Made by a program: the position numbers and the translations under genes. The notes under the pieces were generated by a model. It saw nothing but the letters and a program-made list of their open reading frames with translations, was not told where the DNA came from and ran no database searches. Positions 1,535 through 20,000 of a stretch of DNA of 20,000 bases are shown piece after piece. Within the stretch, counting starts at the first letter, position 1. Every line of letters begins with the position of its first letter. Origin of the DNA: Reclinomonas americana ATCC 50394 (taxonomy: Eukaryota); assembly GCA_048213135.1 (NCBI GenBank), contig PS015297.1, positions 69,116 to 89,115 on the forward strand, given 5' to 3'.

Positions 1535-3892
1535 GATGATGGAGGCGAATGCACATGCTAATGCATTGGGCGAGCAGTGCGCGTCGCATATCGTGTCTCG
1601 CCAGTCGCAGTGTCGACGACGATTTGTCATTTGTCCGTCTAGTGGCTCGGGGAATGTGCTGCGTGTGAGACAAGAACCTCGGGTCATTCTCTCTCTCTCT
1701 CTCACACACACACTCACTCTCTCTCTCTCTCTTCACACGCACCCCACTCTCACTCTCTTTATGTCAATGATGTTGCTGTGAGGGCGTCTTGAAGCAGCTG
1801 CATTCTAGTGTCTCACGTGCATTGTCACCACGCATAGCACACTCGCTCACATGCACACCCGAAATGCGAATTCTCTCTCTCTCTCTCTCACTCTCTCTCC
1901 CCCCTCCCTCCCCTCCCTCACCCTTGCGCTATATCCATTCGCCTGTCGCAGCCTCTCTCTCTCTCTCCTCTCTCTCCCCTTCTCCCGTCCCCCCTTATTC
2001 TTCTCTCACCCTGGTGCTCATCCCGTTCGTCTCCCACAGCTTCTTCGGCGACGACCAACGCCGCCACCTCCATCTCGACTGTGACGGCGACGCTCAACGC
2101 GTCCGTCGACAACACGTCTGCTTCGCCGAGCAACAACTACTTTGAGCTGGCCGTCGATAGCACGGATTTCACCACGGCGTCGGTGGTCAGTACTTTTGCC
2201 GGCAGCATTGGAACGCACGCGTTCCAGAACGACGATCGACTGCATGCGACGTTTGATAGCCCTGTCGTTGAGTGTCACCTGCTGAAGATCATCACGGGGA
2301 TATTCGTTGTTGAATTCGAATCACTAACACACACACGCACACGTGTTGTGTGCGAGTAGGGGATGACGTCGGATGCACGCGGCAATCTATATGTCGCCGA
2401 CTACCAGTTGCGTAGATGTCTGCATGTATTGCCGTGAGGATGATGCCTTGATTTGATGCTGACTTGTGCGGGCGTGCAGCAATCAATGCATTCGATTCGT
2501 TGATATTCACTCGGGAGATGTGTCGACATACACGGGCGGATGTGGCCAGCCGTACGGCTACGTGAATGGCGGTCCCTCTGCTGCGCTTTTTTACAAGTTG
2601 CGTTGATCGGCTCTTGTGTACGTGTGGGGTATTCTCTCTCACGGGGGCTTCACGATGCTGACGTCGACACGATGCTGCTACAAAACACAGTCCTGTGGGA
2701 TTAGACATGGATCGGCAGACGACGACGCTCTATGTTGGTGATGTGCGTTCCTCACAGTGAGGCGTGAGCGCTATGTGTGGTATCTGTTCTGGCCTTCTCT
2801 AAGTGCGGTGCCTGCTGTCGTGTGGCTTGGTGGACCGTTTTGGTTGACGCCATTTCACTTTGTTTGTTGCGCTTTTATTATATCGTTCCTGATGCGCGGT
2901 TGAAGAGCTGTTTCATCTGTTCAACGTGCTATCGTCTCTCTCTCTCTCTCCCTCTCTCTCTCCCTCTGCTGTACGGCCAAGGCGATCGTACGTACAGCAG
3001 ACACACTCGTCTCTCTCTCTTTCCGTGGCGTGGCAGTTATCCTTATGACACTCGTCGTTCTATATNNNNNNNNNNNNNNNNNNNNNNNNNNNNNNNNNNN
3101 NNNNNNNNNNNNNNNNNNNNNNNNNNNNNNNNNNNNNNNNNNNNNNNNNNNNNNNNNNNNNNNNNNNNNNNNNNNNNNNNNNNNNNNNNNNNNNNNNNNN
3201 NNNNNNNNNNNNNNNNNNNNNNNNNNNNNNNNNNNNNNNNNNNNNNNNNNNNNNNNNNNNNNNNNNNNNNNNNNNNNNNNNNNNNNNNNNNNNNNNNNNN
3301 NNNNNNNNNNNNNNNNNNNNNNNNNNNNNNNNNNNNNNNNNNNNNNNNNNNNNNNNNNNNNNNNNNNNNNNNNNNNNNNNNNNNNNNNNNNNNNNNNNNN
3401 NNNNNNNNNNNNNNNNNNNNNNNNNNNNNNNNNNNNNNNNNNNNNNNNNNNNNNNNNNNNNNNNNNNNNNNNNNNNNNNNNNNNNNNNNNNNNNNNNNNN
3501 NNNNNNNNNNNNNNNNNNNNNNNNNNNNNNNNNNNNNNNNNNNNNNNNNNNNNNNNNNNNNNNNNNNNNNNNNNNNNNNNNNNNNNNNNNNNNNNNNNNN
3601 NNNNNNNNNNNNNNNNNNNNNNNNNNNNNNNNNNNNNNNNNNNNNNNNNNNNNNNNNNNNNNNNNNNNNNNNNNNNNNNNNNNNNNNNNNNNNNNNNNNN
3701 NNNNNNNNNNNNNNNNNNNNNNNNNNNNNNNNNNNNNNNNNNNNNNNNNNNNNNNNNNNNNNNNNNNNNNNNNNNNNNNNNNNNNNNNNNNNNNNNNNNN
3801 NNNNNNNNNNNNNNNNNNNNNNNNNNNNNNNNNNNNNNNNNNNNNNNNNNNNNNNNNNNNNNNNNNNNNNNNNNNNNNNNNNNNNNNNNNNN

Positions 3893-3925
<33 letters not shown>

Positions 3926-5640
3926 TCTCTCTCTCTCTCCTCTCTACCTCTCTCCTCTCCTCTCGTCTACTTCCTTTCCTTCTCTTACTTCTCTCGTCTC
4001 TCCTCCTCCTCCTCCTCCTCCTCCTCCTCCTCCTCCTCCTCCTCCTCCTCCTCCTCCTCCTCCTCCTCCTCCTCCTCCTCCTCCTCCTCCTCCTCCTCCT
4101 CTTCCTCCTCCTCTCTCTCTCTCTCACTGATCGCTGCCACCACCCAGGCCGACAACAACGCCGTTCGCTCGGTGACCTCTGATCGGACGACGTCCACCTT
4201 GGTGGACAACAGCACCAACTTGAATGGCTCGCCTGCGCTTGACAGTGTGTTCAATGTCGCCTTCGATTCGTCGTCGCAGAGTGTGTACTTTATCTCGTAC
4301 AACACGCACACCATTCGGTACGTGTGATTGTGTGAATTCGCCCATCGACTGTATTTCGGATGTTCACTTGGTGGTCGGTGTATGTAGTCGCATCAAGAAT
4401 GACGGAACTGGCGCGATGGTGTTCTGCGGACAGCACAATACGAGCGGAACAACCAATGGTGACTGTGGGACGGCCACGTTCACTCAGCCGTCTTCAATTG
4501 CGGTGGACCAGGCACGAAATGTGCTGTACGTTGGCTCCGGTACTAACATGGTCATTCGGCAAATCGATTTGGCTTCGAACCAAGTGACGACAATTGCGGG
4601 CACTGGGGCGACTGGATCGGCGGACGGGTCTGCGCTGAGCGCGACGTTTCAGTCGACGATTAGCGTGGTTCTGGATGTCACGCGCGACGTGTTGTACGTT
4701 GGCGAACGCAACAACGGAAGTATCCGCCAACTTGACCTGTCGAGCGCGAACGTCTCGACCATTGTCAATGGACCGAGTGGCACTGTGAATGGCTCGCTTG
4801 CAAGTGCGCGATTCCAGTATGCGGTAAGCGATTCTCATCCATTTTGTGTTGGCTGATCTATGCTGTGACTCAACAGCAATCGATCTGACACTGTTCTGTT
4901 TGTGCAGTTCGGCATGGTCGTCAACGGTAATCGGTTGTACGTCACCGGTGAGCTGAGCAGAATGAAGAGGAGAGTGAGTAATCCATTGGTTGTGTAGTGC
5001 ATCTGACGATGGTCTTTTGTGCAGACTTTTCCGGGAGTGTGATACATGTTATCAAGTTTCAACCATCGTCTACGCGGCTCACGGCATCGCCGAGCACCAC
5101 CGGGGCCACCACTTCGGTGTCGGTATCCAAGGCTGTCTCGCAGCTCAACAGCGGAGCGACGTACTATTACCGTGCGGTGACCGTGCTCTCCGACTCGACG
5201 GTGTTGAATGGGTCGACGCTGTCGTTCACAAGTGCGTCTCCGCCGAGCTTGTACATTTACTCGTGNNNNNNNNNNNNNNNNNNNNNNNNNNNNNNNNNNN
5301 NNNNNNNNNNNNNNNNNNNNNNNNNNNNNNNNNNNNNNNNNNNNNNNNNNNNNNNNNNNNNNNNNNNNNNNNNNNNNNNNNNNNNNNNNNNNNNNNNNNN
5401 NNNNNNNNNNNNNNNNNNNNNNNNNNNNNNNNNNNNNNNNNNNNNNNNNNNNNNNNNNNNNNNNNNNNNNNNNNNNNNNNNNNNNNNNNNNNNNNNNNNN
5501 NNNNNNNNNNNNNNNNNNNNNNNNNNNNNNNNNNNNNNNNNNNNNNNNNNNNNNNNNNNNNNNNNNNNNNNNNNNNNNNNNNNNNNNNNNNNNNNNNNNN
5601 NNNNNNNNNNNNNNNNNNTTGTGTAATACTTCTTCCTCTC

Positions 5641-5691
<51 letters not shown>

Positions 5692-6142
5692 CTTCTCGTG
5701 GATTCAACAGCTGCACTTGCGACGAGCAGCGCGGCGACTGCAGTGGCGACTTACACGGCGACTGTGAATGGGTCTATCACGAACAACTCGGGTGCCACTA
5801 GCAGCAACTTTTTCGAACTGGCGCGATCGAGCAGCGACTTCACGACTGTGTCATCGGTGACGACATATGCTGGTACCCTGAACACTCCTGGAACTACCAA
5901 TGGCCCACGCGCGAGTGCACTATTCAATGATCCGCGAGTTACGTCTCGACTGCCATTGCTGGCAGTTGTGTACGACCATGAATGATGTTTCTCCTGACAC
6001 ATGTGACGCATCGTGATGTGCTGGCACTGCAGGCTATTGTTGGCGACTCTGAGGGCAGTTTGTATCTGGTGGAATCAGGGTTGCGTGCTCGTGTCGTTTC
6101 GTGTTCGGCGAAGCTGTCGGTTTGTACGCTTACTGTCTTGCT

Positions 6143-6220
<78 letters not shown>

Positions 6221-7537
6221 TGTGTTGTTCTGTTCTCTCGAGTAGCAATAGCTGCATTCGATACATTGATGCGTCGTCCGGCATGGTGTCGACGTTTGCC
6301 GGCGTGTGTGGTGCAAGTGGTGCACTGGTGGATGGCGCGGCGTCTACGGCGCGGTTCAACAGGTGCGTGCGGGTTTGTGGTATCTGAAATCATTTCATTT
6401 GACTGACATGATGCCGATAATGCTTTGTGCTCGTGTGCAGTCCACGAGGCATCGCCATTGATCTGGAGTCGAGCACGCTGTTTGTTGCTGATGTGCGTGG
6501 GTTCATTATCTTCACATGCTTGCTTTCTCTCTCTTACAAACACTATGTACACGGCGTGCACTCTCCATTCCTGTCTCACCATCCTGTCGCTTTGGGACTT
6601 GGGATTCCCTTCGTTGCTGCATGATTTGTTCACCTCTGCTTGACTGAAGGTGTTGGCTATCAGTGTCTCTGTGAGCTCACTCTTCTTTCACCACAGACCG
6701 CAAACAACGCACTTCGACGAGTGTCATCGACTGGGTACACGACGACGCTGGTCACAAGCAGTAGCGCCTCACCGGCTCCAGACTTCATCTACAGCGTTGT
6801 TTACGATGCGAGCAACCAGGTGTTGTACTTTTCCGAATTCAACCAACATACTGTGCGGTGAGTGGCGCGTGGAAAGTGAGCATGGTGCAATAGAGGAAAG
6901 ATGTGACTTATGTATTACTGAGTTGCTCGGATAATAGTAGTATTTACCAGGTTGACTGCCTTCGTTGTGACTTTCGTTTTGTGGTAGTCTTCTTCCATTT
7001 TCTTTTTGCTGATGTGTCATTTGCATTTGCTGACTCTTGTTTGCTACCGGTCACAGGCGTGTGAACGTCGACGGCTCGTCCATCACCCTGCTGTGCGGTC
7101 AGTATGGTACTTCTGGTGCTGATGACGGCGACTGCTCGACTACTACACCAACTTTCAACGAACCCGCGGGACTGGTACTCGATCTGTCGGTCAATATGCT
7201 ATACGTGGGATCGAAGAGCGGACGCAAGGTTAGGCAGCTGGACTTGGCGGCGAGTCCCATCCAGCTTGGCACTCTTGTTGGCCAAAATACCAGTGGGTTC
7301 ATCGTGGGTGCCGCTGCCGCTGCCCTGTTTGTGGAACCGCGCTCGCTATATCTGGACGAAGTGCGACGGATTCTGTACATTGGGGATTCTTCAGTGGGCA
7401 TCAAGCAGCTCGATCTCACCACCATGATCGTGTCTGCTCTCACAATGCCTGCACTGGGTGCTCTCCCTGTCGATGGGCCAATGACAGATGCGATTGTTGC
7501 CACACCGGTGCGTGTATACTGTGCTGAGTGTGTGTTG

Positions 7538-7569
<32 letters not shown>

Positions 7570-7633
7570 NNNNNNNNNNNNNNNNNNNNCGTACGTACGT
7601 ACGTACGTACGTACGTACGTACGTACGTACGTA

Positions 7634-7672
<39 letters not shown>

Positions 7673-7680
7673 TCGTCGTC

Positions 7681-7769
<89 letters not shown>

Positions 7770-10700
7770 TCTCTCTCGCGTGTTCGTTTGTCAAGTGCAT
7801 TTGAATGCATGTGCGCGTGTATTTTTGCTTGCTTGTCTTTGAATGCTGTGCGCTTTCCCACCCGTGCACTGGCTGATTGCCGCATTGCGTGTTGCAATTT
7901 GTGTCACTTATCTGCTCAATTTTGCAGCATGGCATGTACTTGGCGCAAGGCAATCAACTCTATGTTACCGGTGAGTTGGGAAGTTCTTTTCTTGCACTTG
8001 ATAGATAATGGAAACTGTGCGACTCATTGTGTTTCATTTGTATCAGAGTTTTCCGGTTTGACTGGAGTCGGTCACACGGTTCGATTGATCACGTTGCAGC
8101 CTGGGGAGTGCCGAATCACTGGTGGTCCATCGACGAGCGCGTCAGGATCGACCAGCAGCATCAGTGATGCACTGTCGCAGCTGACGCCTGGATCCGTCAG
8201 CTATTTCCGTGCAGTGACTGTGCTGTCGGATTCGACCGTGGTGGTTGGATCGACGCTGTCGTTCACGACGAGTTGCGTTGGCGATTGAGTGGTTCTCCTC
8301 TTGACTGTCATGGTTTCTGAATCCACTTCGCCTCGTCTTAGATGTTGCACCGTCCGTGACAAGCTTTTCGCCGAGCAGCATTATTGCGGAGACGAGTGGC
8401 GCGCAAATTGTGTTGACGGGCACGGCGTTGCAGGCAGCAGATGTAGTACAAGTGCAGATGGGAGCGGACTGCACGGGTGGCGGCACAGCACTGTCGTCGG
8501 TGTCTGTGACCGGGGATGGAATGACGAAGACGGTGCAGACGAACAGCCTGTCTCTGGCAGTGGGATCGTATGTTTTGTGGTGCGTTTTGTGACGGAGAGG
8601 AAGCAAGAGTGTGACAGTGAAGGAGTGCCGGAGATAGAAAGAAATGGGAAGGCGCGATGTACGAATGTTAGTGCCTGTTTCCCTGCGGTTTAGAAGAGAA
8701 AGGGAGCGAGCATAGGCGAATCATCGAATTTGATAGTTGTTGTTAGTAGTGGGTGTAGCTGTTCTCTAGAGTGTTTGTTTGTAAGCAATTGTGGTCTATG
8801 GAAAGTCATGGGAGAAAGATGAATGAGGGGCAGTTTGAAGGCTGGTATCGAGCCGAGTCGATATGAAACTGACTGCTTGATCTCAACAGCATCCAGTTTG
8901 GAGGAACGGGACTGTGGAGCACTGTGCCGGGGACGTTGTCTGTAGGTGAGCGTGTGTTGCGTGCGAGTTTGTGTATGCGCGCGTTTGCGTGCGAGTGTGT
9001 TTGTGCTTGTCAGACTATACAAGGCTCACGCTACTGTTGATGTTCGGCGCATGCAGTACCGTCTGCGGACTCGTACACACCGGCGAGCATCACGAGCGAG
9101 ACGACGGGACAGAGTGTGACGGTGACCGGCCATGGTCTCACGGCCAGTGACGACGTGAAGCTTGTGTCTGGAACTGGGTGCTCTGGATCGCCGTCGTACA
9201 GCATGACGAGTGGATCGCTGGGCGGGTCAGCGGGTGCACGGACGTTGACGGTGACGACAAGTGATGTGAATCTGACGCCGGCGGGACAGTATTCTGTGTG
9301 GTATGTTTGCACCATGGGTGGTGGTTGTGGGTTGTTCTTGTCTCTTTGCACATACTGCTCTTGCTTGGAAAGGAAAAGTCGCATTGCCACTAACTTGATG
9401 TGGTTGTGTGTGTGTGTGTTTTTCTTCGTGTTCTGTGTCCGACAACCATGCAGCTATCGATTCAACGGCACGGCGTCGTATGTGCAAGTGACATCGACGC
9501 TGGTGACAGTCAGTTTCGTCATTGTATGGAAGCGGGGAGAGAGAGAAAGAGAAAGAGAGAGAGGGAGAGAGAAANNNNNNNNNNNNNNNNNNNNNNNNNN
9601 NNNNNNNNNNNNNNNNNNNNNNNNNNNNNNNNNNNNNNNNNNNNNNNNNNNNNNNNNNNNNNNNNNNNNNNNNNNNNNNNNNNNNNNNNNNNNNNNNNNN
9701 NNNNNNNNNNNNNNNNNNNNNNNNNNNNNNNNNNNNNNNNNNNNNNNNNNNNNNNNNNNNNNNNNNNNNNNNNNNNNNNNNNNNNNNNNNNNNNNNNNNN
9801 NNNNNNNNNNNNNNNNAACGTACAATCGATTGCCGGTGACAAGGAAGCCATACTGAACACAAAACAACGATGAGAGATACGGTGGTCACCCGCACTTGAG
9901 ACATATCAACCGAAATAAAACAGTGCTTACCGGATTCGGTATCCGCGCATTTGCAAGTGAACCGTACCGAAGACCGCCGCCCGAGAGGATAGTCGACACA
10001 GTCATACTCGATAGGTCGAGCTGCCGAATTCTGTTTAGTGAGCCTTCGCTAATGTACAACACATCGCGGTTGGCGTCGAAGCCAATATAGGGTGTCTGGA
10101 AGAATCTTGCGCTGAGTGCAGATCCGTCTGTCGATCCAGTGCTGCCAGTGCCCGCAATCGTCGTCACTTGATTCGTGGCAAGGTCAATTTGTCGAATTAC
10201 CGGAGATAGTCCAGAAGAGCCCACATACAGCACATTGCGTGTTTGATCCAATGCAAGCGACATCGGGAGGTTGAACTTGGCTTGCGTCACACAATCGCCA
10301 TTGACAGTTCCAGTAGAACTCTGTTGGCCACAAAACAACGTCATGCCAGTCCCGTCACTCTTGATTCGTCTAATGCATCGGCAAACAAGTCAGAGTTGAC
10401 ACAACAACAAAAACTTAGTCAGTGGCGCGCGTACCGAATATTACTCGAGTTATACACAACGATGTATACGTACTGCGTCGACGAATCGTACGCGACATCG
10501 AATACATTCAACATCACCGGTGAGCCATTCAAGTTGGTGCTGTTGTCCACCAAAGTCGACGTCGTCCGATCTGAGGTCACTTTGCGCACCGCGTTGTTGT
10601 TGTTCTGCAGATGACAAAAATTGAGGTCATNNNNNNNNNNNNNNNNNNNNNNNNNNNNNNNNNNNNNNNNNNNNNNNNNNNNNNNNNNNNNNNNNNNNNN

Positions 10701-13700
10701 NNNNNNNNNNNNNNNNNNNNNNNNNNNNNNNNNNNNNNNNNNNNNNNNNNNNNNNNNNNNNNNNNNNNNNNNNNNNNNNNNNNNNNNNNNNNNNNNNNNN
10801 NNNNNNNNNNNNNNNNNNNNNNNNNNNNNNNNNNNNNNNNNNNNNNNNNNNNNNNNNNNNNNNNNNNNNNNNNNNNNNNNNNNNNNNNNNNNNNNNNNNN
10901 NNNNNNNNNNNNNNNNNNNNNNNNNNNNNNNNNNNNNNNNNNNNNNNNNNNNNNNNNNNNNNNNNNNNNNNNNNNNNNNNNNNNNNNNNNNNNNNNNNNN
11001 NNNNNNNNNNNNNNNNNNNNNNNNNNNNNNNNNNNNNNNNNNNNNNNNNNNNNNNNNNNNNNNNNNNNNNNNNNNNNNNNNNNNNNNNNNNNNNNGTGCT
11101 GTCGGATTCGACTGCTGTGGCTGGATCGACGCTGTCGTTCACGACGAGTTACTTCGCGGAATGCGTCGTTCTTTATGCGCAGAGTCGCTGGTTTCTTACT
11201 CCGCTCTCCCCGCACCAGATGTTGCACCGGCCGTGACGAGCTTTTCGCCGAGCAGCATCATCGCGGAGACGAGTGGCGTGCAAATTGTGTTGACGGGTAC
11301 GGCGTTGCAGGCAGCAGATGTTGTGCAAGTTGAACTGGGACTGGATTGCACGGGTGGCGGTACATCACTGACGTTTGTGTCGGTGGCGGGGGATGAATCG
11401 ACAGAGACTGTGCAGACGAACAGCCTGTCTCTGGCAGTGGGATCGTATGTTTTGTGGTGCGTTTGCGGTGGCGACAAGAGGGGAGGCATTGAGGGTGGAA
11501 GAGGAAATGTAGGGCGAGATGAGTAGGATTGAGAAGCCAGATCGCATGCGTCATCTTGCGGGGCAGGCAGAGAGAGACAGCAAGGCCGAAGGAAACAGTA
11601 AGTGTGTTCGAAAGTGGTCGTTGTTTGGGGGAACAGTGTTTGTGTCGGCGAGGTAGAGATTTGCGTGAGTGACGGATGACACGTGTGGTTAAAAGAACAA
11701 GTGTGCGTAATGGAGAGACTTGAAAGTGTGGGAGTGAGTGTGAGTATGTGATCAATCGTGTTTGTGGATGGAGTATCTCACCGAGACTTGTTGTTCTGCG
11801 CTGTCCTCAACAGCATCAAGTTTGGCGGAACGGGACTGTACAGTACAGTGCAGGGGACGCTGTCTGTTGGTGAGTGTGTGTTTATATGCGTGTGCACTCG
11901 GTGGTTGGCAAAACGAGAAGAGTTCATACTGACGTTGATGTTCGACGCTTGCAGTGGCATCTTCGGACTCGTATTCACCGTCGTATATCGCACCATTAAC
12001 GACTGGGCAGACGATGACTGTGACTGGACGAGCGTTGGCCGCGAGCGATAAAGTGCGGTTGGTATCTGGTGGCACATGCACGAGTGGCACGACGACGTAC
12101 AACATGACGAGCGGAGCAGTGGGTGGATCGGCGGGAGCGCGCACACTGTCAGCGTCGACTGGTAGCAGTACTCTTGCGGCCGGCTCGTATCTCGTGTGGT
12201 GCGTTTTGTTGCTTGATGTGCCAGTTCTGCAGCTGCTTCTCGTTTCCCGCGCTTGGCTCATGTGTTTGCGTATTTCTCGTCGCAGTTATCAGTACAATGG
12301 GGTGGGTTCGTTTGTGCAAGTCGGCAGTACGTCACTTGTCGTTGCAGCAGGTTTNNNNNNNNNNNNNNNNNNNNNNNNNNNNNNNNNNNNNNNNNNNNNN
12401 NNNNNNNNNNNNNNNNNNNNNNNNNNNNNNNNNNNNNNNNNNNNNNNNNNNNNNNNNNNNNNNNNNNNNNNNNNNNNNNNNNNNNNNNNNNNNNNNNNNN
12501 NNNNNNNNNNNNNNNNNNNNNNNNNNNNNNNNNNNNNNNNNNNNNNNNNNNNNNNNNNNNNNNNNNNNNNNNNNNNNNNNNNNNNNNNNNNNNNNNNNNN
12601 NNNNNNNNNNNNNNNNNNNNNNNNNNNNNNNNNNNNNNNNNNNNNNNNNNNNNNNNNNNNNNNNNNNNNNNNNNNNNNNNNNNNNNNNNNNNNNNNNNNN
12701 NNNNNNNNNNNNNNNNNNNNNNNNNNNNNNNNNNNNNNNNNNNNNNNNNNNNNNNNNNNNNNNNNNNNNNNNNNNNNNNNNNNNNNNNNNNNNNNNNNNN
12801 NNNNNNNNNNNNNNNNNNNNNNNNNNNNNNNNNNNNNNNNNNNNNNNNNNNNNNNNNNNNNNNNNNNNNNNNNNNNNNNNNNNNNNNNNNNNNNNNNNNN
12901 NNNNNNNNNNNNNNNNNNNNNNNNNNNNNNNNNNNNNNNNNNNNNNNNNNNNNNNNNNNNNNNNNNNNNNNNNNNNNNNNNNNNNNNNNNNNGTGTTTTT
13001 GCGGCACTGCATCATGTTGTTCGTTGTACGTGGATTGTTTCATTGTGTGTTTGACATATTCTGTGGGCGTCTCTCCTTGTGTTCCTGTGGTGCAGTGATG
13101 AGCTTCTCGCCGAGCAGCATCATTGCGGAGACGAGTGGCGTGCAAGTGACTGTGAGTGGCAGCGGTCTGTCGGATGCGGATGTTGTGCAAGTCGAGAGTG
13201 CGGGTGCGTGCACGGGTGCTGGCACTGTGCTGGCTCTTGTTTCGACGCCAGTCAATCGGCTTACGACGATTCGACAAACGACGAGCACGTCGCTGGGTGT
13301 TGGATCGTATTGGGTGTGGTGCGTGTCATGTTTTTTGTGAGCACGAGTTGGGGAGGTGATAGCGAGAAGCGCGCTGTCTGTCAAGTGAGAACAGTACATG
13401 TGACAGAGGCGGAGGAAGAGGCAGAGAGAAACGATGAAGAAAGGAAGTCTTTTTAGTGTCGCGCATATGAAAACACACGACGCTTTGGGTTTTTGTCATA
13501 CACTAATTGGTGTGTTTTTGTTGCACAGTATTCATTTTGCGGGTACGGATGCTGGAGTGTGGCTGCAAGTTCCTGGCGTGTTGGATGTTGGTGCGTGTAT
13601 ACGTCATTCGGAAGTGTGTTATGAGGTGCAGGGTTGCGACTCATTTTTTGAGTACTATTGTTGTTGCTTTGGTTTATGTGTATGTGTGTAGTACCGTCTG

Positions 13701-13995
13701 CGGACTCGTACACACCGGCGAGCATCACGATTGAGACGACGGGTCAGAGTGTGACGGTGACTGGCCATGGTCTCACGGCCAGTGACGATGTGAGGCTTGT
13801 GTCTGGATCTGGGTGCTCTGGATCGCCGTCGTACAGCATGACGAGTGGATCGCTGGGCGGGTCAGTGGGTGCATGGACGCTGACGGTGACGACGAGTGAT
13901 GTGAATCTGACGCCGGCGGGACAGTATTCTGTGTGGTTCGTCTTTCGCTATCCGCATTGGTGTTGCTGAGAAGAGAGTCGGCTTGTCACTGACCC

Positions 13996-14036
<41 letters not shown>

Positions 14037-15043
14037 GCGGTGACAACCGTGCAGCTATCGGTTCAACGGCGCGGGGGCATATGTGCAAGTGACATCGACG
14101 CTTTTGAATGTCAGCTGAGTGATTATGTGTAAAAGAATGTGTGTGCGAGAGAGAAAGAATGTGTGTGTTAGAGAGAGAATGTGAGTGCGGGAGAGTTAGT
14201 GTGATTTAAGTTGTACATGTCGAAGGATCTAACATATATGCGCCTCCACTCCTCCCCTCTCCCTTTCGGTTTTCTTCCGTTTTCTCTCCTCCCATTTTTG
14301 CAGACAAATTGGCGGAGTCATTCACGCCGAGTTCGATTGTGGCGGAGACGAGTGGACAGACGATTACGGTGACTGGACGTGGTCTGACGACGGCCGATGC
14401 GATTCGTCTGGTGCTCGGTGCTTCGTGTGGCGGAGCGACGACGTACGATCTGACGGTGGGATCGGCGGGTGGTGTTGCTGGAGCACGGACTGTGGTTGGT
14501 ACAGTGTCGGATGTGAATCTGACGCCGGCCGGATCGTATGTGGTGTGGTGAGTGTGTGTGGAGATGAGATGTGATGAGGTGTAGAGGGATTTATAGTTAT
14601 TGTTGTTGTTTGTTGTCGTTATTTTTAATGTGAGTCTTTGCATTTAATGCGATTTTCTGCTGTTTCGACTGAACGTGTTGTGCATGGAACAGCTACCAGT
14701 ACAACAACACTGGATCGATTGTGGCGCTGTCGGGAGCACTGAGCGTGTGTTGCGTACTGTTTCTTTCATTGTAGTTGTTTTGTGTTGTTGTGATGTTGTT
14801 GGATTGTGTTTCATTGTGAATGGGATTACAGCCAAGCTGGCGGAGTCATTCTCTCCAGCTGCAGTCGGTGCCAGTACAGCCGGAGAGACGGTGACTGTGA
14901 CTGGACGCGCGTTGACAGCAACTGATGTTGTGCGATTGGTGTCTGGCGGCGGTGGCACGTGTACGACTGGCACGACGACGTACGACATGGNNNNNNNNNN
15001 NNNNNNNNNNGTTAGTTGTAGTAGTGTTGTTGTTTGTTTGTTG

Positions 15044-15120
<77 letters not shown>

Positions 15121-16352
15121 ATTGGTTTGTGTTCAGTTACTTGTATGGCGGTGTTGGCACGCCTGTGCAAGTCGGCAGCACTTCGTTGCTTGTTGCTGCA
15201 GGTCTGTGTGTCTTCGCGGTGATAAATATTCGATCGTCTGTGTCTTGTGTTGCTGACATTTGTGTGTGATTGCAGTGACGAGCTTCTCGCCGAGCAGCAT
15301 CGTTGCGGAGACGAGTGGCGTGCAAGTGACTGTGAGTGGCAGTGGTCTGTCGGATGCGGATGTGGTGCAGGTGCAGAGTGCGGGTACGTGCACGGGTGCT
15401 GGCACTGTGCTGGCTCTTGTTTCGACGGCAGTCGATGGTCTGACGACGATTCGACAAACGACGAGCACCTCGCTTGGTGTTGGATCGTATTGGGTGTGGT
15501 GCGTGTCATGGGTTTTTGTGAGCACGAGTTTTTGGAGGCGACAGTAAGAAGCGCGATGTCTGTCAAGTGAGAACATTGCATGTCGTTGAAAGAGAGAGCG
15601 AGAGAGAGAGAGAGGGAGAGAGAGGGGAAGACAATAGGGGAAGAGAGAAAGAGTGTTTCGTGGGATGCTCTTCTTTTTCTCCAGGCACTGATCGTTGCAT
15701 GTTGTTTGCGTTCTCAGCATTCACTTTGGAGGAGCGCAAGCCGGAGTGTGGCTGCAAGTTCCTGGCGTGTTGGCTATCGGTACGTGTGTGCTGTGCGTCC
15801 ATGGATGTATGTTATGAGGCGACTCATTTTTTGAGTACTGTTGTTGTTGCATTGGTTCATGTGTGTGTGTGTGTAGTACCGTCTGCGGACTCGTACACAC
15901 CGGCGAGCATCACGAGTGAGACGACGGGACAGAGTGTGACGGTGACTGGCCGTGGTCTCACGGCCAGTGACGATGTGAGGCTTGTTTCTGGAACTGGGTG
16001 CTCTGGATCGCCGTCGTACAGCATGACGAGTGGATCGCTGGGCGGGTCAGCGGGTGCATGGACATTGACGGTGACGACAAGTGATGTGAATCTGACGCCG
16101 GCGGGACAGTATTCTGTGTGGTATGTTTGCACCATGGGTGGTGGTTGTGGGTTGTTCTTGTCTCTTTGCACATACTGCTCTTGCTTGGAAAGGAAAAGTC
16201 GCATTGCCACTAACTTGATGTGGTTGTGTGTGTTTGTTTTTTCTTCGTGTTTTGCGTCTGACACCAATGCAGCTATCGATTCAACGGCACGGGGGCATAT
16301 GTGCAAGTGACATCGACGCTGGTGACAGTCAGTTTCGTCATTGTATGGAAGC

Positions 16353-16412
<60 letters not shown>

Positions 16413-19400
16413 AATGGGGAGCATGTGTCGTTGCATGCTGTTTGCTACTCCTCTCTTCCTGTCTAGTCCCTTTCTCTTTTCTTTATTTCTTCTTTTTCTT
16501 CTTATTGTTGATTGTTCTGCAGACAAACTGGCGGAGTCATTCACGCCGAGTTCGATTGTTGCGGAGACGAGTGGACAGACGATCACGGTGACTGGACGTG
16601 GTCTGACGACGGCCGATGCGATTCGTCTGGTGCTCGGTGCTTCGTGTGGCGGAGCGACGACGTACGATCTGGCTGTGGGATCGGCGGGTGGTGTTGCGGG
16701 AGCACGGGCTGTTGTTGGCACAGTGTCGGATGTGAATCTGACGCCGGCCGGATCGTATGTGGTGTGGTGAGTGTGTGTGTGTTGAGATGAATGGGGTGAG
16801 ATGGAGGGATTTTGATGGTCGTGCTTGTTGTTGCTCTGTTGTGTTTGCAAATATTGTCTTTTTTATGCAATTTTCTGCTGGTCCGACTGACGTGTTGTGC
16901 ATGGAACAGCTACCAGTACAACAGCACTGGATCGTTTGTGGCGCTGATGGGAGCACTGACCGTGTGTTGCGTCCTGTATATTTTGTTTCATCGTGTAGTG
17001 TCGTTCGTTTCTGTCTCTTTGTCTCTCTCTCTGTCTCTCTGTCTCTCTCTCTCTGTCTCTCTCTCTGTCTCTCTCTCTCTCCCCACGATTGCTCATTTCG
17101 TCTTGTCGGTTTGTAACTCGCATCGTAGCCAAGCTGGCGGCGTCTTACACCCCGGCTACGATTCTGCCGAATAGCACTGGAAGGACAGTGACTGTGACTG
17201 GACGCGCGTTGACAGCAATTGATGTTGTGCGATTGGTCTCCGGTGGCGGCGGTACGTGCACAAGTGGCACGACGACGTACGACATGACGAGCGGAGCAGT
17301 GGGTGGATCGGCGGGAGCGCGCACACTGGCGACGTCGACTAGTAACAGCAGTCTCGCGGCTGGATCGTATCTCGTGTGGTACGCTCATGGCGCCTGCATT
17401 TTGTGTCTCTCCTCTGCTCGGTTTGTTTGACATCCTCGTGATTTTGTGCAGTTACTTGTACGATGGAGTGGGCACGCCTGTGCAAGTCGGCAGCGCATTG
17501 TTGCTTGTGGCCGCAGGTCTATTTTCTTCGCTTTTGTTGTTTTGCCTGGCCCGTGGCACTCACGTCTGTGTTCTGTTCGCACTAGCGTCATCGGCGACTA
17601 CCAGCGCTGTCTCTTCTGTTTCGACACAGACTGCGACACTGAACGGCCTTGTTACCAATATTTCTGCGTCGGCGAGCAGCAACTACTTTGAGCTGGCCGT
17701 CGACAGCGCAGATTTCTCGGTAGCGTCGGNNNNNNNNNNNNNNNNNNNNATGCCCTCAATGCTTGTCATCGCCCACCGTACAGAACAACAACAACGCGGT
17801 GCGCAAAGTGACCGCTAATCGGATGACGTCAACTTTGGTGGACAACAGCACCAATTTGAATGGCTCGCCGGCGATGTCACGTGTGTTCGATGTCGCGTAC
17901 GATTCGTCGACGCAGTACGTTTATATCGTTGTGAACAACTCGAGTAATATTCGGTACGCGCGCCACTAGTGCACTGACTAAGTTTTCGTTGTTGTGTCAA
18001 CTCTGACTTGTTTGCCGATGCATTAGACGAATCAAGAGTGACGGGACTGGCATGACGTTGTTTTGTGGCCAACAGAGTTCTACTGGAACTGTCAATGGCG
18101 ATTGTGTGACGCAAGCCAAGTTCAACCTCCCGACATCGCTTGCATTGGATCAAACACGCAATGTGCTGTATGTGGGCTCTTCTGGACTATCTCCGGTAAT
18201 TCGACAAATTGACCTTGCCACGAATCAAGTGACGACGATTGCGGGCACTGGCAGCACTGGATCGACAGACGGACCTGCACTCAGCGCAAGATTCTTCCAG
18301 ACAACATATATTGGCTTCGACGCCAACCGCGATGTGTTGTACATTGGCGAAATCTCGCAAAACAGAATTCGTCAGCTCAATCTATCTACTATGACTGTGT
18401 CGACTCCCCTCTCGGGCGTCGGTATTCAGTACGGTTCACTGACAAGTGCGCGGATACAGAATGCGGTAAGCACTGTTTTATTTCGGTTGATATGTCTCAA
18501 GTGCGGGTGACCACCGTATCTCTCATCGTTGTTTTGTGTTCAGTATGGCTTCCTTGTCAACGGCAATCGATTGTACTTTNNNNNNNNNNNNNNNNNNNNN
18601 NNNNNNNNNNNNNNNNNNNNNNNNNNNNNNNNNNNNNNNNNNNNNNNNNNNNNNNNNNNNNNNNNNNNNNNNNNNNNNNNNNNNNNNNNNNNNNNNNNNN
18701 NNNNNNNNNNNNNNNNNNNNNNNNNNNNNNNNNNNNNNNNNNNNNNNNNNNNNNNNNNNNNNNNNGCTCGATATGATTCGCTGTTTGCTCACTATCATCT
18801 CCCGCCCTTCCCCGCCCTTCCCTCAACATTTATTCACAGACCGCAAACAACGCCCTTCGGCGAGTGTCTTCAACTGGATACACAAGGACGTTGGTCAGGA
18901 GCACCAGCGCAACGCCGGCTCCGGACTTCATCTACAGTGTGGCATACGACGCGGGGAATCAGGTGGTGTATTTCTCCGAGTTTGACATGCACACTGTGCG
19001 GTGAGTGACACACAGCAAACGAGCGTGGTGAAATAGAGCAAGTGAGAGTGGAGTCAGTGGAACAAAACATTCTGATTGTGTCACAGACGTGTGAATGCCG
19101 ATGGCTCGTCCATCACACTGCTGTGTGGTCTATACGGAAGTTCTGGTTCTACCGATGGCTCCTGCTCGTCCACTACGACGAGGTTTAACGAACCCGCGGG
19201 GTTGGCGTTGGATTTGACAGCCAACAAGCTGTATGTGGGATCGAGGCAAGGCTACAAAATTCGGCAGCTGGACTTGGCATCTTCTCCGATGCAGCTTGGC
19301 ACTCTTGCGGGCACGAATACACAGGGGTACGCTGTGGGTCCAGCTGCAACTGCCGAGTTCCAGACTCCACTCGCACTATATTTGGACGACGTGCGACGGA

Positions 19401-20000
19401 TCCTGTACATTGCTGATGCTACCGTTGGCGTCAAACAACTCGATCTCAACACCATGCTGGTCTCAATTGTCTCAGCGCCTGCGCTGACTGTTGGCCCAGT
19501 GGACGGACCATTGACAGACGCCATCGTGCATTCGCCGGTGTGTTCAATTGTATGTAGTTGCAAGTAGTGAGCAGTTGCTTTGCGCGTATTTGGTTGTGCA
19601 CCTGTCAGTCTTGTTGGTCCATCGCGAGCAGGCATCGCCATCTATGTGGGCCAGTTAGGGTCTGCACACAGTATTGTGATTCAGTGTCTTTTGCTGAGTC
19701 GTGCTTCACATTTACAGTTTGGCATGTACTTGGCGCAAGGCAATCTACTCTATGTGACCGGTGAGTTGAAAAATGTGTTGTCCATCTTTACAACTACACT
19801 TCCACTTATCGGATCTCTTTCCATCAGAATATCTCGTGTCTACAGGTTTGGGTCACGTTATTCGATTGATCACGCTGCAGCCCAGTGATTGCCGCATCAC
19901 TGCTGGCCCATCGACAAGCGCGTCTGGATCGACCAGCAGCATCAGTGACGCACTGTCGCAGCTGACGCCTGCATCGGTCAACTATTTCCGTGTGGTGACC
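973..20000 (+). CDS. Giant multi-exon secreted/cell-surface protein with repeated FN3::NHL-propeller modules and IPT/TIG-like Ig repeats; 3'-partial and gap-interrupted
   Basis: Exons bounded by YAG acceptors and GT (one GC) donors splice in frame without stops. Paralogous exons have matching lengths (e.g. 227/47/117/52 nt in modules 1 and 2; 244/59 nt in three Ig-B copies). Branch-point-like CTGAC/CTAAC precede many acceptors (e.g. ~2324, 2459, 4885, 7030, 15253). The gene continues past the window end. Continuity across gaps is inferred. Confidence 0.85.
1390..1985. repeat. Intronic (GA)n tracts (~1390-1421, 1501-1529) followed by (CT)n/pyrimidine tracts (~1687-1735, 1872-1985)
   Basis: Directly visible simple repeats. 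Confidence 0.9.
2040..5231 (+). CDS. Module 1 (type a): split FN3-like domain containing a six-bladed NHL beta-propeller, 432 aa
   Basis: Exons 2040-2266, 2360-2406, 2480-2596, 2691-2742, 4148-4317, 4388-4823, 4908-4947, 5025-5231 (sum 1296 nt). NHL motifs include FDSPVGMTSDARGNLYVADYHNQCIR, FYNPVGLDMD..TLYVGDADNNAVR, FTQPSSIAVD..VLYVGS and VTTIAGTGATGSADG. FN3-like ends are ATTNAATSISTVTATLN..YFEL and LNSGATYYYRAV..GSTLSFT. Confidence 0.85.
3893..4125. repeat. Intronic (CT)n + (CCT)n microsatellite
   Basis: A (CCT)n run at ~4001-4110 flanked by CT repeats, just upstream of the acceptor at 4147. Confidence 0.95.
5643..5688. repeat. Intronic (CT)n microsatellite
   Basis: Direct observation; upstream of the acceptor at 5710. 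Confidence 0.95.
5711..8271 (+). CDS. Module 2 (type b): split FN3-like domain containing a six-bladed NHL beta-propeller, 441 aa
   Basis: Exons 5711-5937, 6033-6079, 6246-6362, 6441-6492, 6697-6857, 7057-7507, 7928-7970, 8047-8271 (sum 1323 nt), with the same intron positions and phases as module 1. Motifs include FNSPRGIAIDLESSTLFVADTANNALR, FNEPAGLVLD and LTPGSVSYFRAV..GSTLSFTT. Confidence 0.85.
6144..6218. repeat. Intronic (GT)n microsatellite
   Basis: Direct observation. Similar (TG)n runs occur at ~13997-14031 and ~15045-15119. Confidence 0.95.
7541..7776. repeat. Compound intronic microsatellite (CT)n-gap-(GTAC)11-(GTC)n-(CT)n
   Basis: Direct observation. Confidence 0.95.
8342..8945 (+). 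CDS. IPT/TIG-like Ig domain subtype A, copy 1 (98 aa)
   Basis: Exons 8342-8579 and 8890-8945: PSVTSFSPSSIIAETSGAQIVLTG..DC..GSYVLC|IQFGG..GTLSV. The start resembles the IPT/TIG P-x-V/I-T-S-x-S-P..V-T-I/L-T-G pattern (by eye). Confidence 0.75.
9057..9512 (+). CDS. IPT/TIG-like Ig domain subtype B, copy 1 (101 aa)
   Basis: Exons 9057-9300 and 9454-9512: VPSADSYTPASITSETTGQSVTVTG..GC..AGQYSVC|YRFNG..LVTV. Confidence 0.75.
9817..10604 (-). CDS. Inverted fragment of a type-a NHL propeller module (blades 2-6, partial)
   Basis: Minus-strand exons 10604-10435, 10369-9931 and 9852-9817 with GT-AG introns. Lengths (170, 439 nt) and sequence match + strand 17784-18579. Flanked on both sides by N-gaps. 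Confidence 0.85.
11096..11147 (+). CDS. 3' end of an FN3-closing exon (VLSDSTAVAGSTLSFTT) of a module otherwise lost in the gap
   Basis: Near-identical to 8220-8271; followed by donor GTTACT at 11148 and an Ig-A exon, as at 8272-8342. Confidence 0.8.
11219..11869 (+). CDS. IPT/TIG-like Ig domain subtype A, copy 2
   Basis: Exons 11219-11456 (238 nt) and 11814-11869 (56 nt), the same lengths as copy 1. Confidence 0.75.
11955..12350 (+). CDS. IPT/TIG-like Ig domain subtype D with a B-like N-terminus (103 aa)
   Basis: Exons 11955-12198 and 12286-12350: VASSDSYSPSY..GGTCTSG..AAGSYLVC|YQYNG..LVVAA. Confidence 0.75.
13096..15201 (+). CDS. Ig block 1: subtypes E-B-C-D (four IPT/TIG-like domains)
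   Basis: E 13096-13318 + 13529-13590; B 13692-13935 + 14055-14113; C 14304-14547 + 14693-14748; D 14832-14990 (cut by gap) + 15137-15201. All junctions are in frame. Confidence 0.8.
14114..14303 (+). other. Probable GC-AG intron with donor GCTGAGT
   Basis: Paralogous 59-nt exons end at the same base (GTC A|gtttcgt at 9513 and 16332). Read-through hits TGA immediately, and the next exon requires phase 1. Confidence 0.75.
15276..17516 (+). CDS. Ig block 2: subtypes E-B-C-D (tandem duplicate of block 1)
   Basis: E 15276-15498 + 15718-15779; B 15877-16120 + 16273-16331; C 16523-16766 + 16910-16965; D 17129-17378 + 17452-17516. Offset from block 1 is about 2.2-2.3 kb. Confidence 0.8.
16352..16413. 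repeat. Intronic (GA)n microsatellite
   Basis: Direct observation. A paralogous tract lies at ~9538-9574 and another GA tract at ~15590-15630. Confidence 0.9.
17586..18579 (+). CDS. FN3::NHL module, type a (partial, gap-interrupted)
   Basis: Exons 17586-17729 (SSATTSAVSSVSTQTATLNGLV..NYFELAVDSADF, cut by gap), 17784-17953, 18027-18465 and 18544-18579; paralogous to module 1. Confidence 0.85.
18840..20000 (+). CDS. FN3::NHL module, type b (partial, continues beyond window)
   Basis: Exons 18840-19000, 19087-19537, 19718-19760 and 19828-20000+. Lengths 161/451/43 nt are identical to module 2 exons. Confidence 0.85.

Follow-up and report, generated by a model that had tools for sequence, protein, structure and literature searches.

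The window analyzed here (20,000 nt; positions 69,116 to 89,115 of contig PS015297.1 in the Reclinomonas americana ATCC 50394 assembly GCA_048213135.1, with coordinates below counted from its first base) is a 20-kb draft eukaryotic scaffold of ten contigs and nine N gaps, with 52.5% G+C. Its organization is modular, and almost all of its coding potential is carried by the plus strand, on which NHL-type β-propellers and IPT/TIG-like domains form a long array that may be one giant gene or several tandem genes. Copies B and C of this analysis would each correspond to the same part of the first NHL β-propeller module in such an array, and the subject of this report is the uneven, block-wise divergence between them. 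The main components of the locus are as follows.

2038-8290, plus strand: unit A, exons of NHL-type propellers (first propeller, P1, and second propeller, P2)
8305-17430, plus strand: IPT/TIG-like exons arrayed between the propellers, among them those at 8352, 11229, 13091, and 15271 (repeat families D5, D7, D9, and D15)
9817-10630, minus strand: copy B, an 814-nt contig homologous to 17750-18579 over its whole length (93.5% identity over 796 nt by blastn)
17584-20000, plus strand: unit C, exons of NHL-type propellers (P1, then P2)

The IPT/TIG-like exons score against Pfam TIG with E-values of 0.0006-0.004, marginally short of the cut-off, and their copies pair at 78-95% by blastn within the window. 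Copy B is the sole minus-strand module in the window; the rest of the array, 18 kb, lies on the plus strand.

The largest exon compared between the two copies, exon 2 (439 nt, 146 residues), belongs to the NHL-repeat β-propeller family. Using phmmer, 103 proteins were matched at E ≤ 0.001, nearly all of which carry PF01436/PF25021 and several of which combine NHL with IPT/TIG (PF01833), and a profile of five window copies matched SOQ1 and NHLRC2 in the PDB with E ~1e-27; single exons miss the Pfam cut-off (TEN_NHL, E = 0.063; NHL, E = 0.12). The AlphaFold2 (AF2) model of the exon, with a mean predicted local distance difference test (pLDDT) score of 69, contains eight strands in two full blades, and the best Foldseek matches of this model were NHLRC2 and SOQ1, with template modelling (TM) scores of 0.67-0.71. 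In HMMER, 36,133 proteins of the library matched the exon at E ≤ 0.001; the best 150 of these are 635-7518 residues long, most of them longer than 2000 residues, with 8-44 matched stretches, and the top matches among those listed have 2,000-7,500 residues and 15-44 NHL stretches at ~35% identity. No close relative of the exon was identified by local blastp of 255 proteins (≤45% identity), and no close paralogue was identified in the protein collections, where the search of longer proteins reached at best 47% over short stretches and the search for near matches returned two, at 35-38%. Judged by these sequences, giant multi-propeller NHL proteins appear to be common, but none among the matches listed seems close to this family. 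A literature search for an NHL and TIG family in choanoflagellates returned papers on teneurin evolution and horizontal gene transfer, among which no such array was found.

Copy C (17750-18579, plus strand) was globally aligned with the reverse complement of copy B (9817-10630), and the introns of both were predicted from their GT-AG ends, from the continuity of the reading frame, and from a paralogue in unit A (paralogue A) that has the same break. The alignment holds 49 substitutions and two 8-nt indels across 814 aligned bases, which fall on the successive parts of copy C, all on the plus strand, as listed.

17750-17783, plus strand: 3′ end of the upstream intron, ending in CAG before the open frame, at the contig start after a 20-N gap; 4/26 substitutions and an 8-nt indel relative to B
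17784-17953, plus strand: exon 1, one NHL blade (NNNNAVRKVT...NSSNIR), an open frame followed by GT at 17954; 17/170 substitutions
17954-18026, plus strand: intron 1, GT...AG, 73 nt (65 nt in B); 1/65 substitutions (17987) and an 8-nt indel (17964-17971)
18027-18342, plus strand: conserved part of exon 2, blades 1-2 of the exon; 5/316 substitutions, in three codons (T36M, P83S, and T93P)
18343-18465, plus strand: variable patch of exon 2, a blade end and the linker to the next blade; 20/123 substitutions, 13/41 residues replaced
18466-18543, plus strand: intron 2, 78 nt (GTAAGC...TTCAG); 0/78 differences
18544-18579, plus strand: first 36 nt of exon 3, frame YGFLVNGNRLYF, at the contig end before a 186-N gap; 2/36 substitutions (18560 and 18577)

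An earlier reading made from the sequence alone (hereafter the sequence-only reading) had described these differences closely. Intron 2 is, as it stated, the reverse complement of 9853-9930 with zero differences in the alignment, and intron 1 has a single substitution and an 8-nt indel; the two copies are identical between 18464 and 18559. In exon 2, 25 bases differ, spread over 20 codons, and 16 amino acids are replaced, 13 of them among the last 41 residues; the two peptides that had been quoted for this segment match the translation. The multi-base codon changes reported there (ACA/ATG, ACA/CCC, and ATC/GGC) are all present, along with CCC/ATC and AAT/GAC, and the AMSR/VMLN and VNN/VYN changes are present in exon 1. 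These differences stand; the contrast drawn between an identical intron and a hypervariable exon does not, for divergence goes by block and crosses an intron/exon border.

Two older blocks, 17753-17936 and 18346-18463, are 10-16% diverged, and two nearly identical blocks, 17937-18345 and 18464-18579, are ~1% diverged. The left diverged block spans the border between the upstream intron and exon 1, with 15% divergence in the intron fragment and 10% in the exon. Within exon 2 the variable sites are not randomly spread, with 20 of 123 in the patch against 5 of 316 outside it (Fisher p = 4e-8), and the patch likewise exceeds introns 1 and 2, where a single substitution was counted in 143 sites (p = 1e-6). 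When the B/C alignment was permuted, its two-breakpoint maximum chi-square was matched in 2 of 300 permutations and its longest identical run, 146 nt, in 1 of 300.

The silent and non-coding positions follow the same blocks. Relative to the 1/143 of introns 1 and 2, synonymous differences are in excess in exon 1 (9/38 sites, p = 3e-6) and in the patch (5/33 sites, p = 0.0009), as are differences in the upstream intron fragment (4/26, p = 0.002). Synonymous divergence (dS) and non-synonymous divergence (dN) are 0.29 and 0.067 in exon 1, giving a ratio dN/dS (ω) of 0.23, and 0.17 and 0.19 in the patch, giving ω = 1.12; for the whole of exon 2, ω is 0.97. Because silent positions are diverged in the diverged blocks too, the blocks probably differ in ancestry.

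Three further copies of the module in the window served for comparison.

4151-4823, plus strand: paralogue A-P1, the outgroup (exon 1, 4151-4318; exon 2, 4389-4823); 63% amino acid identity to exon 2 of copy C, and 25-43% nucleotide divergence by block
7058-7507, plus strand: A-P2, the homologous exon in the second propeller of unit A; 39% amino acid identity to exon 2 of copy C
19088-19537, plus strand: C-P2, the homologous exon in the second propeller of unit C; 42% amino acid identity to exon 2 of copy C

The introns of paralogue A mismatch the homologous B/C introns at 17/54 and 32/76 aligned nucleotides, the latter at the position of intron 2. In the TIG units U3 and U4 (13040-14990 vs 15220-17290), exon windows of 60 columns are 92-100% identical and intron windows mostly 40-75% identical, with one conserved exception at 14664-14723 (56/60). 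Sequence constraint as the cause of the B/C intron identity was ruled out by these two sets of introns, and that identity is best read as recency, not constraint. The U3/U4 pattern is opposite to that of B and C and suggests exon-confined homogenization or strong constraint; in the TIG exons, dS is 0.08-0.135 and ω is 0.16-0.39.

Uneven similarity of the B/C kind also occurs elsewhere in the window. TIG2 of unit 1 (9052-9574) is 95% identical to 15872-16400 over 530 nt that include non-coding sequence, and the homology stops abruptly upstream of 9052; the pair contains a 170-nt identical run (9245-9413) with clusters of changes on either side. The adjoining TIG1 exons gave no blastn pairing, and when scored by the repeat finder against the family reference 13091-13336, the copy at 8352-8597 reached 64% and that at 15271-15516 reached 93%. 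The stretches 9052-9574 and 15872-16400 thus look like another mosaic pair, and mosaic similarity would appear to be general in the locus.

The interpretation that we favor, with a confidence we would put at about even, is that B and C form a mosaic produced by conversion or exchange between tandem NHL modules. Exchange between the repeated modules would have been non-reciprocal, by gene conversion or unequal crossing-over, as in concerted evolution, and could have acted in either of two ways: it may have homogenized the segment except for two islands, or one copy may have received two short tracts copied from other paralogues. Patchwise gene conversion had been one of the two processes offered by the sequence-only reading, and it fits the data in that divergence comes in blocks and the silent sites of the diverged blocks lie far above introns 1 and 2; we infer conversion as the process on this basis. 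Within the patch, moreover, B equals outgroup A at seven consecutive differing sites (18379-18419; p = 0.017), a run that looks like a short tract of ~40 nt. This run, and the exon 1 island, with its ω of 0.23 and its extension into an intron, lean toward neutral exchange.

Several results weigh against this mosaic. When A is taken as outgroup, B and C pair with each other in every block (2-16% between B and C, 25-43% to A), and phylogenetic incongruence is not among the results, only the depth of divergence appearing to differ between blocks; no donor for either diverged tract was found within the window. The comparison is limited to two sequences, both of them 0.8-kb contigs that lie between gaps and have coincident ends. 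The last difference of the patch (18463) falls 2 nt short of the exon end (18465), and a right edge so near the exon end would be predicted by selection on coding sequence, not by a neutral tract. The ratio of synonymous to non-synonymous differences in the patch rejects an ω of 0.2 (p = 0.0003) and of 0.3 (p = 0.006), and is compatible with 0.5 (p = 0.085). This ratio, 5:15, also departs from the 29:24 pooled from four other recently diverged exons of the locus, whose ω is 0.16-0.39 (Fisher p = 0.035). Neutral conversion alone may not be the whole story.

The alternative that fares best, although we consider it unlikely, is that the second island is maintained by selection: conversion would homogenize the modules, and diversifying or divergent selection on the blade-2/blade-3 loops would keep or promote the differences at 18346-18463, with linked silent changes carried along. 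The position of the last difference 2 nt from the exon end and the elevation of ω, which is confined to the patch, lean in this direction, and exon 1 and the patch are more diverged than introns 1 and 2, as exons are relative to introns in the primate L/M opsins (PMC3213168). Against selection, ω is not above 1, since the 5:15 ratio in the patch equals the neutral expectation (binomial p = 1.0), and the island in exon 1 has a low ω and extends into the intron. Older pairs show purifying selection on the patch segment: comparison of A-P1 with B or C gives ω of 0.21-0.33, at saturated dS and with true values that are probably lower, and C-P2 compared with A-P2 gives 0.31-0.32 in both parts of the exon. 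Diversifying selection, the other process of the sequence-only reading, is therefore not demonstrated with two sequences, given the patch, exon 1, and older-pair values of ω.

The patch is nonetheless distinct within its own lineage. Among the P1 copies, dN in the patch segment is ~2 times that of the remaining exon, and the patch is the block most diverged from A (40-43%, the other coding blocks being at 25-32%). It appears to be the least constrained part of the module, and the B/C pair shows no sign of constraint there. Such a pattern would fit relaxed selection, diversifying selection, or selection against homogenization, which are inseparable with two sequences.

Mapping onto the AF2 model is similarly two-sided. 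Twelve of the 16 replaced residues lie outside the modeled strands and the remaining four are all at strand edges, as selection on loops would have it. The proportion in strands (4/16, compared with 46/146 for the exon overall) gives p = 0.78, however, so that non-strand positions are not enriched and the concentration of changes in loops lacks statistical support. Residues 130-146, which include seven of the replacements, were modeled at a pLDDT below 50. In the model, the replacements would sit in the strand-B/C loop and in the long linker into the next blade, on the side which, from general topology, we take to be the face that usually binds in propellers; the assignment of the changes to ligand-face loops is a matter of topology only.

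The next alternative, which we also think improbable, is an artefact of assembly, in which the contigs are chimeric or a collapsed consensus of a multi-copy repeat, copy B is misplaced or flipped, and the linkage of the patches, and perhaps the identical stretches, would not represent two real copies. Copy C is flanked by N gaps at 17730-17749 and 18580-18765 and copy B by gaps at 9575-9816 and 10631-11095. The ends of the two contigs coincide in the alignment: each contig starts 3 nt ahead of the outermost difference on the left and stops 2 nt past that on the right. Assemblers leave such ends where they meet the edge of a collapsed repeat or a heterozygous bubble. By the same contig-break logic, the collapsed flanks of B and C are, in the mosaic reading, probably near-identical too.

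The gaps, in addition, leave too little room for the missing exons. Contig 8 breaks off at 17729 in the middle of an exon, the first of its propeller, and the 186-N gap, judged by unit A, would need to contain the remainder of P1 as well as the beginning of P2. The first feature of contig 6, from 11096, is the final exon of a second propeller (VLSDSTAVAGSTLSFTTS...; 11096-11200, 84% to 8220-8587), and no propeller precedes this tail in the scaffold; therefore, the gaps of 242 N and 465 N around copy B hide several kilobases. Gap lengths in this scaffold are unreliable and are underestimates. The tail at the start of contig 6 leads one to expect a P1-P2 pair at the place of copy B, and the order of modules therefore fits copy B as a paralogue. 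Copy B may be a P1 piece of a neighboring tandem unit, and its inverted orientation, which as the only one in the plus-strand array otherwise speaks for an artefact, may be a scaffolding error.

Against an artefact as the source of the variation, phase switches cannot make differences, and phase errors would thus not produce those between B and C; for each patch, the reads must contain no fewer than two variants. Neither copy has lost its open frames or GT-AG ends, and the internal identical runs of no more than 146 nt could be spanned if the reads were of Sanger or 454 type.

Alleles are a still weaker explanation, and one that we regard as very unlikely: B and C would be two haplotypes of a single locus, from a sample that was heterozygous or not clonal, one arm of the bubble having been placed in a nearby gap. 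The contig ends coinciding at the outermost differences do resemble a heterozygous bubble, and B lies only 7.1 kb from C (7173 nt between the arms 10421-10607 and 17781-17967), but C is without flanks of its own, with gaps and missing exons on either side that suggest repeated rather than unique flanks, a P1 module is expected where B lies, and an inverted orientation is unexpected for an allelic arm. We infer, accordingly with due reserve, that B and C are paralogous rather than allelic. Point mutation with positive selection after a very recent duplication was ruled out for both islands by silent-site divergence of 0.17-0.29 compared with ~0.007 in introns 1 and 2, and adenine-specific mutagenesis like that of diversity-generating retroelements (DGR) or mutagenesis like repeat-induced point mutation (RIP) was ruled out by the 49 substitutions (27 transitions and 22 transversions), which hit all four bases in both copies.

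Two sets of observations concern the array at large. A conserved tail closes each propeller (5164-5229, 8201-8266, and 19851-20000; …ITLQP..C.IT.GPSTSASGSTSSISDALSQLTP…YFR.VTVLSDSTV..GSTLSFTT); it has no Pfam match and may be a small uncharacterized domain. Long microsatellites are present at 4000-4113 ((CTC)38), 6144-6225 ((GT)41), 15045-15119 ((TG)37), 16353-16412 ((GA)30), and 7590-7777 ((CGTA)12, then (CGT)16 and (TC)48), and several lie at contig ends, for example at 9525-9574 and 7537-7569.

For now, the main practical value of the B/C pair is as a warning. The picture of an identical intron beside a hypervariable exon rests on a pair of 0.8-kb contigs from a region of collapsed repeats, and such a combination does not by itself establish adaptive diversification. 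If B and C are real paralogues, they would offer a compact and clear case of concerted evolution in which islands of divergence remain within a tandem multi-propeller gene, and the exon 2 patch would be a candidate specificity-determining segment of an uncharacterized family of NHL/TIG surface proteins.

In structure, the modeled exon folds like NHLRC2 (PDB 6gc1 and 6g7w) and SOQ1 (PDB 7djj-7djm), with a root mean square deviation of 1.7-1.9 over 112-117 columns and 23-29% identity. These proteins combine a thioredoxin-like domain with a single propeller, whereas the locus described here is a tandem multi-propeller array with TIG-like domains. In that respect it resembles the giant multi-propeller NHL proteins of public genomes and metagenomes, among whose listed matches none exceeds 45% local identity to the exon.

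In its pattern of divergence, the closest documented counterpart is the pair of primate L/M (red/green) opsins, tandem paralogues whose introns are more alike than their exons. The opsin study (Hiwatashi et al. 2011, PMC3213168) describes exons more diverged than introns, introns less diverged than synonymous sites, and an explanation by conversion together with selection against homogenization. The opsin case draws on a large set of individuals and species, together with GENECONV tracts, and ours on two sequences from one draft assembly; unlike in the opsins, one of the diverged B/C blocks extends into an intron, and the function of the variable residues is hypothetical. The B/C pair displays the uneven divergence of a mosaic, with silent and non-coding sites following the block, and an ω that does not exceed 1.

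The sequence-only reading had likened the copies to immune, prey-recognition, or allorecognition receptors, an analogy for which this analysis provides no evidence; for its idea of variable binding heads, the closest analogue is the HNWD family (het-d/het-e) of Podospora anserina. In the report of Paoletti et al. 2007 (PMC1805685), its WD40 β-propeller repeats are described as undergoing concerted evolution within and between loci, with four positively selected codons per repeat and variation proposed to lie on the interaction surface. HNWD proteins are intracellular and NLR-like, with WD40 rather than NHL and IPT/TIG-like domains; positive selection there extends across many repeats, as against ω ~1 in one 41-codon patch of one pair here, and a link to non-self recognition would be hypothetical for B and C. 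We think it quite unlikely, though somewhat less so than an allelic origin, that the array is a repertoire of NHL-propeller heads in which selection keeps the blade 2-to-3 loops different between modules or alleles against homogenizing exchange. Were it one, the array would represent an extracellular, propeller-based system of variable recognition in a microbial eukaryote, comparable to the WD40 repeats of HNWD but built of NHL and IPT/TIG domains.

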